Sequence record: NC_019768.1
Source: Escherichia phage HK106
Reading direction: 5' to 3' (one strand)
Length of the DNA stretch: 41,468 nt
Below the pieces are notes generated by a model. The model was not told where the DNA came from. It saw nothing but the letters and a program-made list of their open reading frames with translations, and did not search any database. The translations under genes and the position numbers were made by a program. Shown here in pieces: positions 21,263 through 41,468 of this stretch; the first letter of the stretch is position 1, and every line of letters starts with the position of its first letter.

Positions 21263-21411
21263 TAATGCTCTGCTACAGGTCACTAATACTATCTAAGTAG
21301 TTGATTCATAGTGACTGGATATGTTGTGTTTTGTCGCATTATGTAGTCTATTTTTTAGACTAAATATATTGTAATGCATTGATATTAATGGTTTTTAATG
21401 TTTCACGTTCA

Positions 21412-21426
21412 GCTTTTTTATACTAA
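21412..21426. other. attP core, lambda type
   Basis: CAGCTTTTTTATACTAAGTTGG with AT-rich arm sequences on both sides, adjacent to int; core is present once and intact. Confidence 0.85.
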
Positions 21427-21499
21427 GTTGGCATTATAAAAAAGCATTGCTTATCAATTTGTTGCAACGAACAGGTCACTATCAGTCAAAATAAAATCA

Positions 21500-22570
21500 T
21501 TATTTGATTTCAATTTTGTCCCACTCCCTGCCTCTGTCATCACGATACTGTGATGCCATGGTGTCCGACTTATGCCCGAGAAGATGTTGAGCAAACTTAT
21601 CGCTTATCTGCTTCTCATAGAGTCTTGCAGACAAACTGCGCAACTCGTGAAAGGTAGGCGGATCCCCTTCGAAGGAAAGACCTGATGCTTTTCGTGCGCG
21701 CATAAAATACCTTGATACTGTGCCGGATGAAAGCGGTTCGCGACGAGTAGATGCAATTATGGTTTCTCCGCCAAGAATCTCTTTGCATTTATCAAGTGTT
21801 TCCTTCATTGATATCCCGAGAGCATCAACATGCAATGTTGTAGGTATGGCAATTTTTACGCCTGTTTTGCTTTGCTCGACATAAAGATAGCCATCTACGA
21901 TATCAGACCACTTCATTTCGCATAAATCACCAACTCGTTGCCCGGTAACAACAGCCAGTTCCATTGCAAGTCTGAGCCAACATGGTGATGATTCTGCTGC
22001 TTGATAAATTTTCAGGTATTCGTCAGCTGTAAGTCTTGATCTCCTTACCTCTGATTTTGCTGCGCGAGTGGCAGCGACCGGGTTTGTTGTTATATGGCCT
22101 TCAGCTATTGCCTCTCGGAATGCATCGCTCAGTGTTGATCTGATTAACTTGGCTGATGCCGCCTTGCCCTCGTCTATGTATCCATTGAGCATTGCCGCAA
22201 TTTCTTTTGTGGTGATGTCTTCAAGTGGAGCATCAGGCAGACCCCTCCTTATTGCTTTAATTTTGCTCATGTAATTTATGAGTGTCTTCTGCTTGATTCC
22301 TCTGCTGGCCAGGATTTTTTCGTAGCGATCAAGCCATGAATGTAACGTAACGGAATTATCACTGTTGATTCTCGCTGTCAGAGGCTTGTGTTTGTGCCCT
22401 GAAAATAACTCAATGTTGGCCTGTATAGCTTCAGTGATTGCGATTCGCCTGTCTCGGCCTAATCCAAACTCTTTACCCGTCCTTGGGTCCCTGTAGCAGT
22501 AATATCCATTGTTTCTTATATAAAGATTAGGGGGTAAATCCCGGCGCTCATGACTTCGCCTTCTTCCCAT
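21500..22570 (-). CDS. int: tyrosine integrase (lambda Int-like)
   Basis: 356 aa, matches lambda Int over its whole length as I recall it; overlaps xis. Confidence 0.95.
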   Translation of the reverse strand: MGRRRSHERRDLPPNLYIRNNGYYCYRDPRTGKEFGLGRDRRIAITEAIQANIELFSGHKHKPLTARINSDNSVTLHSWLDRYEKILASRGIKQKTLINYMSKIKAIRRGLPDAPLEDITTKEIAAMLNGYIDEGKAASAKLIRSTLSDAFREAIAEGHITTNPVAATRAAKSEVRRSRLTADEYLKIYQAAESSPCWLRLAMELAVVTGQRVGDLCEMKWSDIVDGYLYVEQSKTGVKIAIPTTLHVDALGISMKETLDKCKEILGGETIIASTRREPLSSGTVSRYFMRARKASGLSFEGDPPTFHELRSLSARLYEKQISDKFAQHLLGHKSDTMASQYRDDRGREWDKIEIK

Positions 22571-36641: not shown

Positions 36642-37284
36642 TGGCAGCAAATACCGAAATATTTGGGTAGTTGGCGATCTGCACGGATGCTACACGAACC
36701 TGATGAAAAAACTGGAGACGATAGGATTCGACACCAAAAAAGACCTGCTTATCTCGGTTGGCGATTTGGTCGATCGCGGTACAGAGAACGTCGAATGCCT
36801 GGAATTAATCACATTCCCCTGGTTCAGAGCTGTACGTGGAAACCATGAGCAAATGATGATTGATGGCTTATCAGAGCGCGGAAACGTCAATCACTGGATG
36901 CTTAATGGCGGTGGCTGGTTCTTTAATCTCGATTACGACAAAGAAATTCTGGCTAAAGCTCTTGCCCATAAAGCAGATGAACTTCCGTTAATCATCGAAC
37001 TGGTGAGCAAAGATAAAAAATATGTCATCTGCCACGCCGATTATCCTTGTGACGAATACGAGTTTGGAAAGCCAGTTGATCATCAGCAGGTAATCTGGAA
37101 CCGCGAACGAATCAGCAACTCACAAAACGGGATCGTGAAAGAAATCAAAGGCGCGGACACGTTCATCTTTGGTCATACGCCAGCAGTGAAACCACTCAAG
37201 TTTGCCAACCAAATGTATATCGATACCGGCGCAGTGTTCTGCGGAAACCTAACATTGATTCAGGTACAGGGAGAAGGCGCATGA
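36619..37284 (+). CDS. ninI: NinI serine/threonine protein phosphatase (lambda phosphatase)
   Basis: 221 aa from ATG at 36619; metallophosphoesterase motifs GDLHG, GDLVDRG, GNHE. Confidence 0.9.
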
Positions 37285-37904
37285 GACTCGAAAGCGTAGC
37301 TAAATTTCATTCGCCAAAAAGCCCGATGATGAGCGACTCACCACGGGCCACGGCTTCTGACTCTCTTTCCGGTACTGATGTGATGGCTGCTATGGGGATG
37401 GCGCAATCACAAGCCGGATTCGGTATGGCTGCATTCTGCGGTAAGCACGAACTCAGCCAGAACGACAAACAAAAGGCTATCAACTATCTGATGCAATTTG
37501 CACACAAGGTATCGGGGAAATACCGTGGTGTGGCAAAGCTTGAAGGAAATACTAAGGCAAAGGTACTGCAAGTGCTCGCAACATTCGCTTATGCGGATTA
37601 TTGCCGTAGTGCCGCGACGCCGGGGGCAAGATGCAGAGATTGCCATGGTACAGGCCGCGCGGTTGATATAGCAAAAACAGAGCAGTGGGGGAGAGTTGTT
37701 GAGAAAGAGTGCGGAAGATGCAAAGGTGTCGGCTATTCAAGGATGCCAGCAAGCGCCGCATATCGCGCTGTAACGATGCTAATCCCAAACCTTACTCAAC
37801 CCACCTGGTCACGCACTGTTAAGCCGCTGTATGACGCTCTGGTGGTGCAATGCCACAAGGAAGAGTCAATCGCAGACAATATCTTGAATGCGGTCACACG
37901 TTAG
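37281..37904 (+). CDS. Q: Q late-gene antiterminator
   Basis: 207 aa, lambda Q-like including the zinc-binding CRDCHGTG…CGRCKG region. Confidence 0.9.
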
Positions 37905-37946: not shown

Positions 37947-37975
37947 TTGACTTTTTGAATAAAGTTGGGTAAATT
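37947..37975 (+). promoter_or_regulatory. late promoter PR' (-35 TTGACT, -10 TAAATT)
   Basis: 17-bp spacing; directly downstream of Q, as in lambda. Confidence 0.7.
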
Positions 37976-38013
37976 TGACATCAACGATGGATAAATTCAC
38001 TCGTTAAATAAAG

Positions 38014-38662: not shown

Positions 38663-39122
38663 TCAACGTAAGGCGTTCCTCGATATGCTGGCATGGTCAG
38701 AGGGAACTGATAACGGACGTCAGAAAACCAGAAATCATGGTTATGACGTCATTGTTGGCGGAGAGCTATTCACTGATTACTCCGATCACCCTCGCAAACT
38801 TGTCACGCTAAACCCGAAACTCAAATCAACAGCCGCCGGACGCTACCAGCTTCTTTCCCGTTGGTGGGATGCCTATCGTAAGCAGCTTGGCCTGAAAGAC
38901 TTCTCTCCGAAAAGCCAGGATGCGGTGGCGTTACAGCAGATTAAAGAACGCGGCGCGCTGCCGCTGATTGATCGGGGTGATATTCGTCAGGCTATTGATC
39001 GTTGCAGCAATATTTGGGCTTCATTGCCCGGTGCTGGCTACGGTCAGTATGAACACAAGATCGATAGTCTGATTGCCAAATTCAAAGAAGCTGGCGGGGT
39101 GGTTAATGAAACTTCGCTATAA
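38646..39122 (+). CDS. R: endolysin R (lytic transglycosylase)
   Basis: 158 aa, lambda R-like. Confidence 0.95.
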
Positions 39123-39567
39123 GCTGGTTATTTCTGCTTTCCTCCTGACTTTATTCGGTTCTCTCGTCTGGTCAGCTAATCATTACCACAATAAAGCCAT
39201 TGAATACAAAAAACAGCGCGACGAAAACGCTATGGCATTAGATTCGGCTATGGCGACGATCTCTGATATGCAGAAGCGTCAACGTGACGTAGCAGAACTC
39301 GATGCCAGATATACAAAGGAGCTTGCTGATGCTAACGCGACTATCGAAAGTCTCCGTGCTGATGTTTCTGCTGGTCGTAAGCGCCTGCAAGTCGCCGCCA
39401 CCTGTGCAAAGTCAACGACCGGAGCCAGCGGCATGGGCGATGGAGAAAGCCCAGGACTTACAGCAGATGCTGAACTCAATTATTACCGTCTCCGAAGTGG
39501 AATCGACAGGATAACCGCGCAGGTTAACTACCTGCAGGAGTACATCAGGACGCAATGCCTGAAATAA
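39106..39567 (+). CDS. Rz: spanin inner-membrane subunit Rz (i-spanin)
   Basis: about 153 aa from ATG at 39106; N-terminal TM helix and coiled coil; central region resembles lambda Rz, ends divergent. Confidence 0.8.
   Translation: MKLRYKLVISAFLLTLFGSLVWSANHYHNKAIEYKKQRDENAMALDSAMATISDMQKRQRDVAELDARYTKELADANATIESLRADVSAGRKRLQVAATCAKSTTGASGMGDGESPGLTADAELNYYRLRSGIDRITAQVNYLQEYIRTQCLK
39329..39514 (+). CDS. Rz1: spanin outer-membrane lipoprotein Rz1 (o-spanin), embedded in Rz in the +1 frame
   Basis: about 61 aa from the in-frame ATG at 39329; signal peptide with lipobox VSAC and proline-rich mature region. Confidence 0.7.
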   Translation: MLTRLSKVSVLMFLLVVSACKSPPPVQSQRPEPAAWAMEKAQDLQQMLNSIITVSEVESTG

Positions 39568-39599
39568 TTTTTTTGCAAATCACAAAGTCCATTTAATGA

Positions 39600-39622
39600 G
39601 CCTCGCGATGCGGGGCTTTTTT
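39600..39622 (+). terminator. intrinsic terminator after the lysis cassette
   Basis: GCCTCGCG-at-GCGGGGC followed by TTTTTTA. Confidence 0.55.
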
Positions 39623-39765
39623 ATGTCCGCAGTAAACGCGCATCTCACGCGCATATTAACGAGAGCCTTTCAGTAAGCGAGCCTGAGAAATGCCGTTATA
39701 GGTGGCGACCTCTCTCGGGCGGCTTTTCTGTGAGACAGGCTCACTTTCTAAAAGGTAAAGACGCT

Positions 39766-40254
39766 ATGAACCAATTAGAAGAAAAGCTTCAAAGAATGAT
39801 TTCCTTATACAAGGAAGATAACTGCCAAAAAGTTCCTGAAAACATCGCAGAGTTAATGGAATTGGCAAGTGAATTTTCTGGCATGCTTAAGTCGTCAGGT
39901 GTTCGGTCAGCGTTCTTTGTTGAAATGCTGATGCACGGCGGACTTAGGGCAACAATGAGACGTGTAATGGAAGACCAGAGAAAAGAACCTCCTCAGGTAT
40001 ACGTTTTGTCATCGAAGAAAACTGGGCTAACCAAAATTGGGTATTCATCCAACATTCCACAACGCATCAAATCGCTTGGCAACTCTGGACCAGACTGCTT
40101 GAAGCTTGAGTGCCTGATCCCTGGTGGAAGAGAAACTGAAAACATGCTTCATCGCAAATTTGCCGCAAAGAGAAAGCACGGTGAATGGTTCGCCCTGTCC
40201 AAGGATGACATTGAGGGATTGAAATCTGTAGCGATTACTTCTGATGGCTATTAA
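39766..40254 (+). CDS. T5orf172-domain (GIY-YIG-like) protein, unknown function
   Basis: about 162 aa from ATG at 39766 (track start 39730 is GTG); C-terminal VYVLSS…KIGYSSN…R…E…HRKF…GEWF pattern of the T5orf172 / MUG113 domain. Confidence 0.6.
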   Translation: MNQLEEKLQRMISLYKEDNCQKVPENIAELMELASEFSGMLKSSGVRSAFFVEMLMHGGLRATMRRVMEDQRKEPPQVYVLSSKKTGLTKIGYSSNIPQRIKSLGNSGPDCLKLECLIPGGRETENMLHRKFAAKRKHGEWFALSKDDIEGLKSVAITSDGY

Positions 40255-40737
40255 TGCTTGTTTAGAGCAATTTTCATAACAACTCTTCATTCCAAAGCCC
40301 ATCTACGGGTGGGCTTGATAATGAAACCGTGATTTACATCCCTCACAATCCAGGTATGTAAAAGCTGGATCATGCGAGAACGGATTTAACTAAATCTGTG
40401 CGCCACCAGTTAACGGCAGCACCGCGAAACAACCCAAGCCAGTAAGTGGGGAAATAACACTGGCAGCCACTGAAAGATGAACCTCCTGCCTTATGGCAAA
40501 AAAGATTCTTTGTGGTGGCGGACTGATGGAAAGACATCGGTTATTGCAGAGACCATTCAATGAGTGGTCTCGACAATAGCTTATACCCTACACGGGATAA
40601 CTTAACTGATATCCCTTTTAACGGATAAACGGAGCCAACAATGGCAGAGATTATTCTCATGACTGAAGAACAGAAATTCCAGTTAGAGATTTACAAACTG
40701 GTCATGAACCAGAACGCCGCCGTGCATGGAGACTGGC

Positions 40738-41079
40738 ATGAACAAAGAGCCCCGCGTATATGGCAGCCGATGGGATAAGGCCCGTCTGCGTTTTCTCCAG
40801 CAGCACCCACTGTGTGTGATGTGCGAGCAGCAGGGGCGCATAACACCAGCAACGGTGGTCGACCATATCGTGCCCCACAAACTGAAAGATGCGCTTAAGT
40901 CAGGTAACCCTCTGGCCATATCGAAAGCACAGCTCCTGTTCTGGAGTAAAGAGAACTGGCAGCCACTGTGCAAAGCGCATCATGACTCAACGAAACAGAG
41001 AATGGAGAAGAGCGGCGCGGTAATCGGTTGTGATGCCAACGGCTACCCGCTCGATCCTGCGTCTCACTGGAGCACGTAA
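40738..41079 (+). CDS. HNH endonuclease (HK97 gp74-type, terminase-associated)
   Basis: about 113 aa from ATG at 40738 (SD GGAGA; in-frame ATG also at 40726); …CVMCEQQGRITPATVVDHIVPH…LCKAHH… HNH motif; last gene before the terminase genes. Confidence 0.8.
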   Translation: MNKEPRVYGSRWDKARLRFLQQHPLCVMCEQQGRITPATVVDHIVPHKLKDALKSGNPLAISKAQLLFWSKENWQPLCKAHHDSTKQRMEKSGAVIGCDANGYPLDPASHWST

Positions 41080-41282
41080 TGAAAGACCTCATCATTGAAT
41101 ACCGAGACGGTAAGTTTGTTCAGCTGGCGATTGATGGCGTGGAGATGAAGCGCGTAACGTCTATCCAGTTCTCCCACACCTTAGGCGAGGACGTACCGAC
41201 ATTGACCGTGTCAGGACATGTGTGGTCCGAGTATGGGAAAGGCGATCACAAACTCGAACAGGTAGACAAACATTCGGCATAG
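41079..41282 (+). CDS. hypothetical 67-aa protein
   Basis: ATG overlaps the HNH stop (TAATG). Confidence 0.45.
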   Translation: MKDLIIEYRDGKFVQLAIDGVEMKRVTSIQFSHTLGEDVPTLTVSGHVWSEYGKGDHKLEQVDKHSA

Positions 41283-41468
41283 CGCGGCGGCGGCAAGTAG
41301 ATTATCTATCATGTGAAATCATTTCAAATGCAACGATATCAAATGAGAATGAATCGCATTCAGGGCAGGGGGGGGGGATCAAATCTTCAAAACCTTTGCC
41401 CCAAATGACCGCCGCCAAAGTTTGAATTTAACGCTAACCCGATTTTTTTAGTTTTAAGGTGTTGACAT
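41283..41468. other. putative cos / packaging-initiation region containing a G10 tract
   Basis: non-coding stretch between the HNH gene block and the small terminase gene at position 1; homopolymer G10 at 41368-41377; the exact cleavage site cannot be read from sequence alone. Confidence 0.3.

Follow-up and report, generated by a model that had tools for sequence, protein, structure and literature searches.

A predicted T5orf172-type endonuclease gene as one of several interchangeable alleles in the lysis-to-packaging slot of Escherichia phage HK106

Introduction

Among phage proteins with a T5orf172 domain, a close described counterpart of the gene considered here is Odn (Gp88) of phage ICP1, an origin-directed nuclease that cuts DNA in vitro and is inactivated by mutation of the glutamate equivalent to E125 of the protein described below (PMC8263062). 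Other T5orf172 genes encode homing-type nucleases and are found near terminase genes and at recombination boundaries (PMC10448857). We analysed the 41,468-nucleotide sequence of Escherichia phage HK106 (NC_019768.1; this whole stretch is referred to as the window), a complete-looking HK97-like lambdoid genome whose right end is 96–98% identical to those of mEp234, HK544, HK022, and HK97. Between its lysis and packaging genes lies a gene for a 162-aa protein, which an initial annotation had described as a T5orf172 (GIY-YIG-like) protein carried as an accessory gene of the late region.

Like Odn, the HK106 protein has a C-terminal T5orf172 domain that retains the catalytic arginine and glutamate and does without the histidine or tyrosine of helix 1 (PMC8263062). 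Both proteins are phage-encoded and optional, their variable loci are home to Rha- and Bro-type genes as well, and in both the N-terminal domain resembles a protein of a rival element, for which we propose a targeting role in the present case. The two N-terminal domains differ in kind, as that of Odn is a RepA_N DNA-binding domain whose target is the origin iterons of PLE, an element that resembles phage-inducible chromosomal islands, whereas that of the HK106 protein is an acidic bundle similar to HkbL of phage HK620. With the T5orf172 homing genes of ICP1, T5-like, and other phages, the gene shares the Pfam domain, the vicinity of terminase genes, the location at an exchange boundary, and a patchy distribution, but it lacks a Zn-finger domain, is much smaller (162 aa), and replaces cargo instead of inserting. 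The same two-domain architecture is found at 29%–32% identity in gp68 of Salmonella phage epsilon34 and gp64 of g341c (PHROG 4284), which are likewise encoded behind Rz and its terminator, here in a P22-like phage, and are annotated only as "GIY-YIG nuclease family protein" or have no function assigned.

Domain architecture of the HK106 protein

The gene and its two domains map to the following positions of the window:

39766–40254, plus strand: gene for the two-domain protein of 162 aa, including the TAA stop codon at 40252–40254 (open reading frame, profile matches, and start codon of the NCBI pipeline)
39766–39981, plus strand: N-terminal domain, residues 1–72, three-helix bundle (AlphaFold2, hhalign)
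39994–40230, plus strand: T5orf172/MUG113 nuclease domain of the GIY-YIG superfamily, residues 77–155 (Pfam, fold model)
40000–40002, 40033–40035, 40063–40065, 40138–40140, and 40183–40185, plus strand: codons of Y79, K90, R100, E125, and E140, respectively

The C-terminal part of the protein belongs to the T5orf172/MUG113 branch, as the initial annotation had read from the signature segments VYVLSS (residues 78–83), KIGYSSN (90–96), and GEWF (139–142). A profile search corroborated this assignment, with scores well above the respective Pfam gathering cutoffs both for MUG113 (PF13455; 56.4 bits vs. 22.3, E = 4.5e-15) and for T5orf172 (PF10544; 42.3 bits vs. 20, E = 1.1e-10). The generic Pfam GIY-YIG model matched in part, covering the first two motifs (residues 77–104, E = 0.19), and the whole protein falls into phrog_4284 of the PHROGs database (E = 1.7e-86). 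NCBIfam gave no match to the 162-aa protein, nor did a sequence search of the PDB with the single protein, and a PDB search with a profile of 76 sequences returned a weak match to UPF0213 (E = 0.43). The model of residues 77–155 resembles GIY-YIG nucleases and has their alpha/beta fold, a three-stranded sheet flanked by helices. Its best fold matches are structure-specific nucleases of the SLX1 type, and T4 EndoII is also among the matches listed.

An exhaustive profile search with the nuclease domain yielded 38,373 cluster representatives, 76 diverse ones of which were aligned. In this alignment, Y79, K90, I91, G92, R100, E125, H129, E140, W141, and F142 are invariant (76 of 76), while R136 and G139 are kept in at least 90% of the relatives, and the protein thus carries the complete family signature VY...KIG...R...E..LH..F...R.GEWF. 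Aligning the domain to the UPF0213 protein 1zg2, together with the partial Pfam GIY-YIG match, identifies Y79 as the tyrosine of the first (GIY) motif, R100 as the catalytic arginine in helix 1, and E125 as the metal-binding glutamate. We take these three residues to occupy the same roles in the register of I-TevI. With the fold of the superfamily and these three residues in place, the C-terminal domain is probably an active, metal-dependent DNA endonuclease. The closest relatives of the nuclease domain carry diverse partner domains, including Zn-finger repeats, TPR, GNAT, and Rha; literature searches on MUG113 and on the function of Rha/KilA-N gave nothing usable.

The N-terminal domain is predicted by AlphaFold2 to form three helices (residues 3–20, 23–43, and 49–71) at a predicted local distance difference test score of ~90, and is acidic (pI 5.8). 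Its conservation in the wider family alignment is limited to hydrophobic and glycine positions. The initial annotation had left the first ~70 residues unassigned; this holds for Pfam, where residues 1–72 have no match, but no longer at the level of profiles. Comparison with hhalign relates the domain to HkbL of HK620 (probability 97.2%, E = 3e-11, residues 4–67) and to p61 of HK97 (probability 96.3%), both members of phrog_875, and in the reciprocal direction HkbL matches phrog_4284 over the corresponding region (E = 4.3e-6). The domain can thus now be assigned to the HkbL/phrog_875 family by profile-level homology. HkbL and p61 are encoded in the same genomic slot as the HK106 gene, and HkbL is a free-standing protein of 85 aa without a Pfam family. 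Its relatives, too, are almost all free-standing, and they lack annotation. In the slots of HK620, HK97, mEp234, and Dewey, its gene directly follows a KilA-N gene, with an overlap of 4 nt in HK620. Given this homology, the HK106 protein is an HkbL-like module bearing a nuclease domain where HkbL has a Lys/Arg-rich tail. A T5orf172-type endonuclease with an HkbL-like module is therefore a well-supported biochemical identity, with its activity predicted from residues and model.

The longest open reading frame (ORF) ending at 40254 begins at GTG 39730. The ATG at 39766 is preceded 10 nt upstream by the Shine–Dalgarno sequence AAAGG and is also the start that the NCBI Prokaryotic Genome Annotation Pipeline assigned to the homologous gene of E. 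coli (WP_016245257.1, 162 aa, "GIY-YIG nuclease family protein").

A cassette slot with exchangeable cargo

Lambdoid phages have a cassette slot between their lysis and packaging genes, with fixed signals at its 5' and 3' sides, and the HK106 gene is one of the interchangeable alleles that fill it. The borders of the slot are as follows:

39598–39618, plus strand: intrinsic terminator that follows Rz and marks where the slot begins on the left, with a GC-rich stem of 9 bp and a T-run behind it
39771–40287, no strand: allele-specific DNA, delimited by blastn junctions with phi80, HK620, Louie, Dewey, mEp234, and HK97; the DNA outside is shared with other alleles
40288–40336, plus strand: shared right border with a 7-bp hairpin, AAGCCCA/TGGGCTT (40295–40301 pairing with 40310–40316), lacking a T-run

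On the left, identity with phi80 (99%) and HK620 (94%) extends to the ATGAA of the start codon, and from 40288 onwards, 33 nt past the stop codon and at a conserved hairpin, the sequence is again homologous to that of HK620, Louie, Dewey, mEp234, and HK97. The GC content is 43% over 39771–40335, compared to 49% in the whole window. The terminator after Rz is annotated as such in phi80 and epsilon34 and shows compensatory changes across genera, while the hairpin at the right border is absent from the output of the terminator scan.

In other phages, the slot holds a variety of cargo: Rha in phi80, KilA-N/ORF11CD3 and HkbL in HK620, and KilA-N/P63C and p61 in HK97 and mEp234. The slot of Louie (L005, 1579–2049) contains a protein similar to the Thoeris anti-defence protein Tad2 (Pfam E = 9e-27; described in the record as anti-CRISPR), whose gene lies directly behind the Rz terminator and without most of the leader described below. 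In Dewey (L006, 1684–2254), an HNH_3-AP2 homing-type gene precedes KilA-N and hkbL, the final 39 nt of the leader being present twice; this HNH_3-AP2 gene looks like an insertion into the leader. Likewise, an HNH_3-AP2 gene lies between the leader and a KilA-N or Rha gene in E. coli ES3 (hit H120).

As the initial annotation had proposed, the gene is an optional component of the late region. Of 5426 complete E. coli genomes, 80 contain the T5orf172 locus and 1470 contain the flanks; among phage records, the corresponding numbers are one and 155. Even the phages closest to HK106, mEp234 and HK97, carry KilA-N in its place, so that its presence is sporadic among near-identical genomes. Conversely, near-identical copies of the gene are found in differing backgrounds, namely with HK97-type packaging genes in HK106, with a nohD terminase of the lambda type in E. 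coli 214-4, and in Chlobot. The leader itself was detected in 641 of the 5426 E. coli genomes in two sequence variants (at least 99% and ~89% identity), each of which precedes Rha, KilA-N, and GIY-YIG genes.

More distant relatives, at 29%–80% identity, occupy the same lysis-to-packaging position in seven of eight contexts, including Salmonella, Klebsiella, epsilon34, and two other prophages, with differing types of holin, endolysin, and terminase. Both domains are under purifying selection, with ratios of nonsynonymous to synonymous substitution rates (dN/dS) of 0.05–0.2 in pairwise comparisons at 73%–86% protein identity, and 42 of 46 copies in IMG/VR are intact. A search for related loci with the close alignment mostly returned near-identical copies. 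A minority of copies is truncated or frameshifted (P0010, P0012, P0015, L052, L056, and L061), leaving N-terminal fragments of 107–111 aa or products from M31. The homologue in a Klebsiella prophage (L016, 4001–5187) has a GTG start and is followed by an overlapping gene for a 232-aa Endonuclease_NS non-specific nuclease.

A structured leader shared by the cargo genes

The DNA between the Rz terminator and the start codon encodes a leader that is shared, at 99–100% identity as far as ATGAA, with the rha gene of phi80 and hkbK of HK620 and that contains these elements:

39636–39765, plus strand: structured leader of ~130 nt, common to the cargo genes of the slot
39638–39641 pairing with 39649–39652, plus strand: P1 hairpin
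39660–39665 pairing with 39712–39717, plus strand: helix a-f
39666–39673, plus strand: anti-Shine–Dalgarno element E1
39679–39685 pairing with 39736–39742, plus strand: helix c-i
39692–39695 pairing with 39720–39723, plus strand: helix d-g, followed by the T-run TTTTCT at 39724–39729
39700–39703 pairing with 39708–39711, plus strand: apical hairpin
39748–39755, plus strand: Shine–Dalgarno region, CTAAAAGG

Homologues of the gene in other genera are preceded by a conserved version of the leader. A degenerate pattern scan, using one genome per species, retrieved 60 loci, mostly from genera of the Enterobacterales, and in nearly all of them a start codon and an ORF follow 5–9 nt downstream. According to Pfam, the 55 downstream ORFs include 20 of the Rha type, eight ORF11CD3, five KilA-N, five tail-tip-like, three HNH_3, and two T5orf172 proteins, as well as single proteins of the Ant, AntA, P22_AR_N, and Bro-N types.

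Several comparisons indicate that the leader acts as a structured RNA. In an alignment of 41 sequences, helices a-f, d-g, and c-i and the apical hairpin pair better than partner shuffles (equalled in 0 of 2000 each), the P1 hairpin reached 0.35% in the same test, and three control region pairs gave no pairing signal. The shuffle tests leave phylogenetic relatedness in the data, but specificity is supported by the control pairs, which were taken from the same sequences and were negative. In the raw MAFFT alignment, 85.5% of the cells pair, compared to 36%–52% when the partners are slid by 1–3 columns, and 25 pairs show two-sided changes, a number reached in 0 of 500 shuffles. RNAalifold independently recovered P1 and the long helix, one strand of which comprises the conserved CCTTTCAG element and c, the other i and the Shine–Dalgarno region. 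The fold of the single HK106 sequence is not significant (z = -1.45), and the structure emerged only from the comparative analysis. As helix a-f crosses both d-g and c-i, the leader is predicted to be pseudoknotted or to adopt mutually exclusive folds, and d-g with the subsequent TTTTCT is terminator-like. Taken together, the leader is, on comparative sequence evidence, a covarying RNA, pseudoknotted or switching, with a long helix predicted to bury the ribosome-binding site.

Neither the leader of the window nor any of eight diverse variants matches a family of Rfam 15. We rejected a leader-peptide attenuator, as an ATG-initiated upstream ORF across E1 is present in only 13 of 28 variants and varies in position and length. 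A ribozyme similar to that of hepatitis delta virus, considered for its nested double-pseudoknot topology, was set aside, with no equivalent of P4 or J4/2 and no Rfam match. The leader also contains no match to the integration host factor (IHF) consensus WATCAR-N4-TTR, and the four matches of the window lie elsewhere. Three of these are clustered at 21294–21464, beside a 356-aa ORF on the minus strand (21500–22570) that we assume to be the integrase gene, the adjoining region presumably being attP.

No second copy of the leader was found within the window. In phi80, a second, diverged copy (L003, 4163–4269; 71% identity) lies upstream of ORF x171.28. A shorter class of leaders of 74–77 nt, ending in ATCTAAAAGGAA (L066, L076, L077, L080, and others), is found in Kosakonia, Atlantibacter, Pseudescherichia, and other genera, where it precedes tail-tip-like and other ORFs of ~60–490 aa, mostly above 200 aa. 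The enterobacterial leader was also retrieved from contigs labelled as metagenome-assembled genomes of Cellvibrionaceae, Bacillota, or Collinsella (L075, L100, L104, and L108), which probably reflects mis-binning or contamination. One of these, L100, contains a 162-aa ORF beginning with ATGAACCAAT as in the HK106 gene, which is probably the same gene.

Genomic setting and expression

The right end of the genome is ordered NinI-like phosphatase, Q, pR'/qut, holin, endolysin, Rz, T5orf172 gene, spacer, HNH gene, a small ORF, TerS, and TerL. The neighbouring features are located as follows:

37281–37904: Q antiterminator gene (Pfam Antiterm match)
37948–37976, plus strand: late promoter pR' with the qut site
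38339 onwards: holin gene, upstream of the T5orf172 gene
38646 onwards: endolysin gene, upstream of the T5orf172 gene
39073–39567: Rz gene, upstream of the T5orf172 gene
40255–40725: spacer of ~470 bp that separates the cargo gene from the HNH gene
40726–41079: HNH gene, downstream of the T5orf172 gene
1–2007: terminase genes TerS and TerL

The intergenic region between Q and S is 100% identical to that of mEp234, in which pR' and qut are annotated, and transcription of the T5orf172 gene probably starts from pR'. This gene is located on the strand of the late operon, behind a strong intrinsic terminator, and a scan of 39000–41468 for sigma-70-like promoters found 0 promoter-like sites, compared to 3.4 expected by chance. 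Transcription by Q-modified polymerase from pR' would be the parsimonious reading of this arrangement.

The initial annotation had likened the locale to that of the bor-type morons of lambda. The likeness of position holds, as the gene follows the lysis terminator and precedes the HNH gene, and like such morons it is an optional gene of atypical GC content between the lysis genes and cos. Its nature as a moron, with a promoter and terminator of its own, found no support: a promoter-like site is lacking, the downstream hairpin has no T-run, and both the leader and the right border are shared with other alleles. The bor gene of lambda is transcribed in the lysogen from its own promoter and on the opposite strand, whereas the T5orf172 gene runs in the direction of the late operon, lacks a detectable promoter, and lies behind a shared structured leader.

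The spacer downstream of the gene contains no convincing ORF. Its portion at 40288–40722 is 95%–97% identical to HK620 and Louie and represents conserved non-coding DNA near the packaging genes.

Possible roles of the nuclease

The most likely function of the gene product would be that of a late-made nuclease acting against rival elements or serving homing-like spread. More precisely, we propose a small, catalytically competent T5orf172/MUG113 endonuclease that is made late and has a conflict or selfish role against other elements in the same cell, a reading to which we assign a probability of roughly 45%. In this scheme, Q-modified RNA polymerase that has started at pR' would pass the terminator behind Rz and transcribe the structured leader, the long helix of which would bury the ribosome-binding site of the cargo gene, and the protein would probably be made only late in lytic growth. 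The nuclease might then cut the DNA of other elements in the same cell, such as rival lambdoid phages or prophages with another allele of the slot, or satellites, resembling Odn of ICP1 and the marker exclusion by free-standing homing endonucleases. Targeting or assembly could be provided by the HkbL-like bundle in place of a classical DNA-binding domain. We favour such a role for three reasons: the homing-type behaviour of T5orf172 genes near terminase genes and exchange boundaries together with the activity of Odn against satellites, the other cargo of the slot, among which are an anti-defence gene and an HNH gene of the homing type, and the homology of the N-terminal domain to HkbL, a protein of a rival allele.

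Several points weigh against this reading. The tyrosine of the second (YIG) motif is replaced by K90, and the helix-1 histidine or tyrosine is absent, with L104 at four positions after the arginine. The domain thereby differs from I-TevI, Slx1, and T4 EndoII, as it has K-I-G instead of Y-I-G and neither residue at this position, and from I-TevI also in that G-E-W-F stands in the place of G-Y-N. Such departures are usual in the T5orf172 branch, and Odn shows the second of them as well. Since the catalytic residues are kept, and since Odn cuts DNA despite lacking the same histidine or tyrosine, the domain still looks like an enzyme. Residues 1–72 contain no recognisable sequence-specific DNA-binding domain (NUMOD, helix-turn-helix, or Zn-finger; Pfam is blank here) and form an acidic helical bundle with only generic structural matches, whereas 87% of the surveyed T5orf172 homing genes have one or more Zn-finger domains (CapR, DUF723, or DUF4397) (PMC10448857). 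The gene replaces other cargo rather than inserting beside it, and among the slots compared only allele replacement was seen, with no empty site or target identified. This distribution would be accounted for, without any cutting, if alleles are exchanged by ordinary homologous recombination within flanks that are conserved. Finally, nuclease activity is deduced from residues and fold, and late expression from the arrangement of sequence signals.

A broader reading, which we consider a tentative possibility, joins the two main features of the locus. The leader would represent an undescribed class of cis-regulatory RNA, and the T5orf172 protein an Odn-like chimera of HkbL and a nuclease. As a pseudoknot or two-fold switch, the leader may control how a hypervariable late cassette is translated, and possibly whether transcription terminates ahead of it, in temperate phages across the Enterobacterales, and the nuclease, fused to a copy of HkbL and guided to the partner of HkbL, may destroy or convert competing lambdoid genomes during co-induction.

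Among the alternatives to a conflict or selfish nuclease, a function in the processing of phage or host DNA survives best, although we regard it as unlikely. The protein might trim branched concatemers, like Slx1, RusA, or T4 endonuclease VII, or degrade host DNA, like T4 EndoII. The SLX1-type fold matches, with T4 EndoII on the list, point in this direction, as do the small size of the protein without a DNA-recognition domain, the position of the gene just upstream of the packaging genes (HNH and terminase), and the overlapping Endonuclease_NS gene behind the Klebsiella homologue. The similarity in fold is, however, generic to the whole superfamily, and RusA or NinG is already encoded in the nin region of related prophages. 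Above all, the viable sister phages HK97 and mEp234 bear non-nuclease cargo in the same slot, and this replaceability of the gene disfavours a packaging helper.

Slightly less probable is a defence moron, expressed from the prophage in the lysogen and cutting incoming foreign DNA in the manner of GIY-YIG defences that consist of a single protein, such as PD-T4-3. The initial annotation had pointed to defence-related contexts of the domain, and the low GC content (43% vs. 49% in the genome), the hairpins that bound the gene on both sides, and the location in a hotspot of accessory genes would fit. PADLOC-DB 2.0 yielded no full-length match to a defence model and, at the level of the domain, a match to the candidate PDC-S57 (residues 73–146, E = 7e-6), which speaks for defence but is limited to the generic domain. 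The other cargo of the slot is of the antirepressor or anti-defence type, not defence. It is mainly the expression signals that disfavour a moron made in the lysogen: no promoter-like site was found in 39000–41468, and the gene, on the strand of the late operon, immediately follows a strong terminator and a leader predicted to sequester the Shine–Dalgarno sequence.

We consider it improbable that the gene is a classical, purely selfish homing endonuclease that is free-standing and site-specific, cutting a single site in genomes without the gene and being copied by repair. The T5orf172 family offers the precedent (PMC10448857), the distribution is patchy with near-identical copies in different phage backgrounds, and an HNH_3-AP2 gene appears to have invaded the same leader with a 39-nt duplication. 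The protein has no long DNA-recognition domain, though, and the gene replaces other cargo rather than inserting. The same slot is kept at 29%–80% identity, with dN/dS of at most 0.2 and few decayed copies, and this long retention indicates selection at the level of the phage rather than a cycle of invasion and decay.

An equally low probability applies to a domesticated, non-cutting DNA-binding regulator like CapR of PLE, the precedent for a T5orf172-derived repressor (PMC10448857), which would be equivalent to the Rha, KilA-N, and antirepressor proteins that it replaces: the cassette and leader are shared with Rha, KilA-N, and Ant-type proteins, and a T5orf172 domain is fused to Rha in the protein P0030, but the invariance of all expected catalytic residues in the 76 diverse relatives, together with strong purifying selection, fits an enzyme and disfavours an inactive regulator.

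Implications for lambdoid phages

The T5orf172 gene of HK106 is in itself largely ordinary, an uncharacterised member of a known nuclease family that is generically named in RefSeq. This family was already linked to homing and to the conflict between phages and satellites, and the gene adds one member. The analysis adds to this a link to HkbL, a cassette slot with defined borders, and a leader with a conserved structure. The link to HkbL ties the nuclease allele to the KilA-N and HkbL allele of the same slot and suggests a testable targeting hypothesis. The position behind the lysis genes of lambdoid phages is a true cassette slot, with Rha as the commonest cargo among the 55 downstream ORFs, followed by KilA-N/ORF11CD3. 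If the leader is regulatory, it controls the timing of a whole class of conflict genes, and it would be a convenient handle for finding new cargo.

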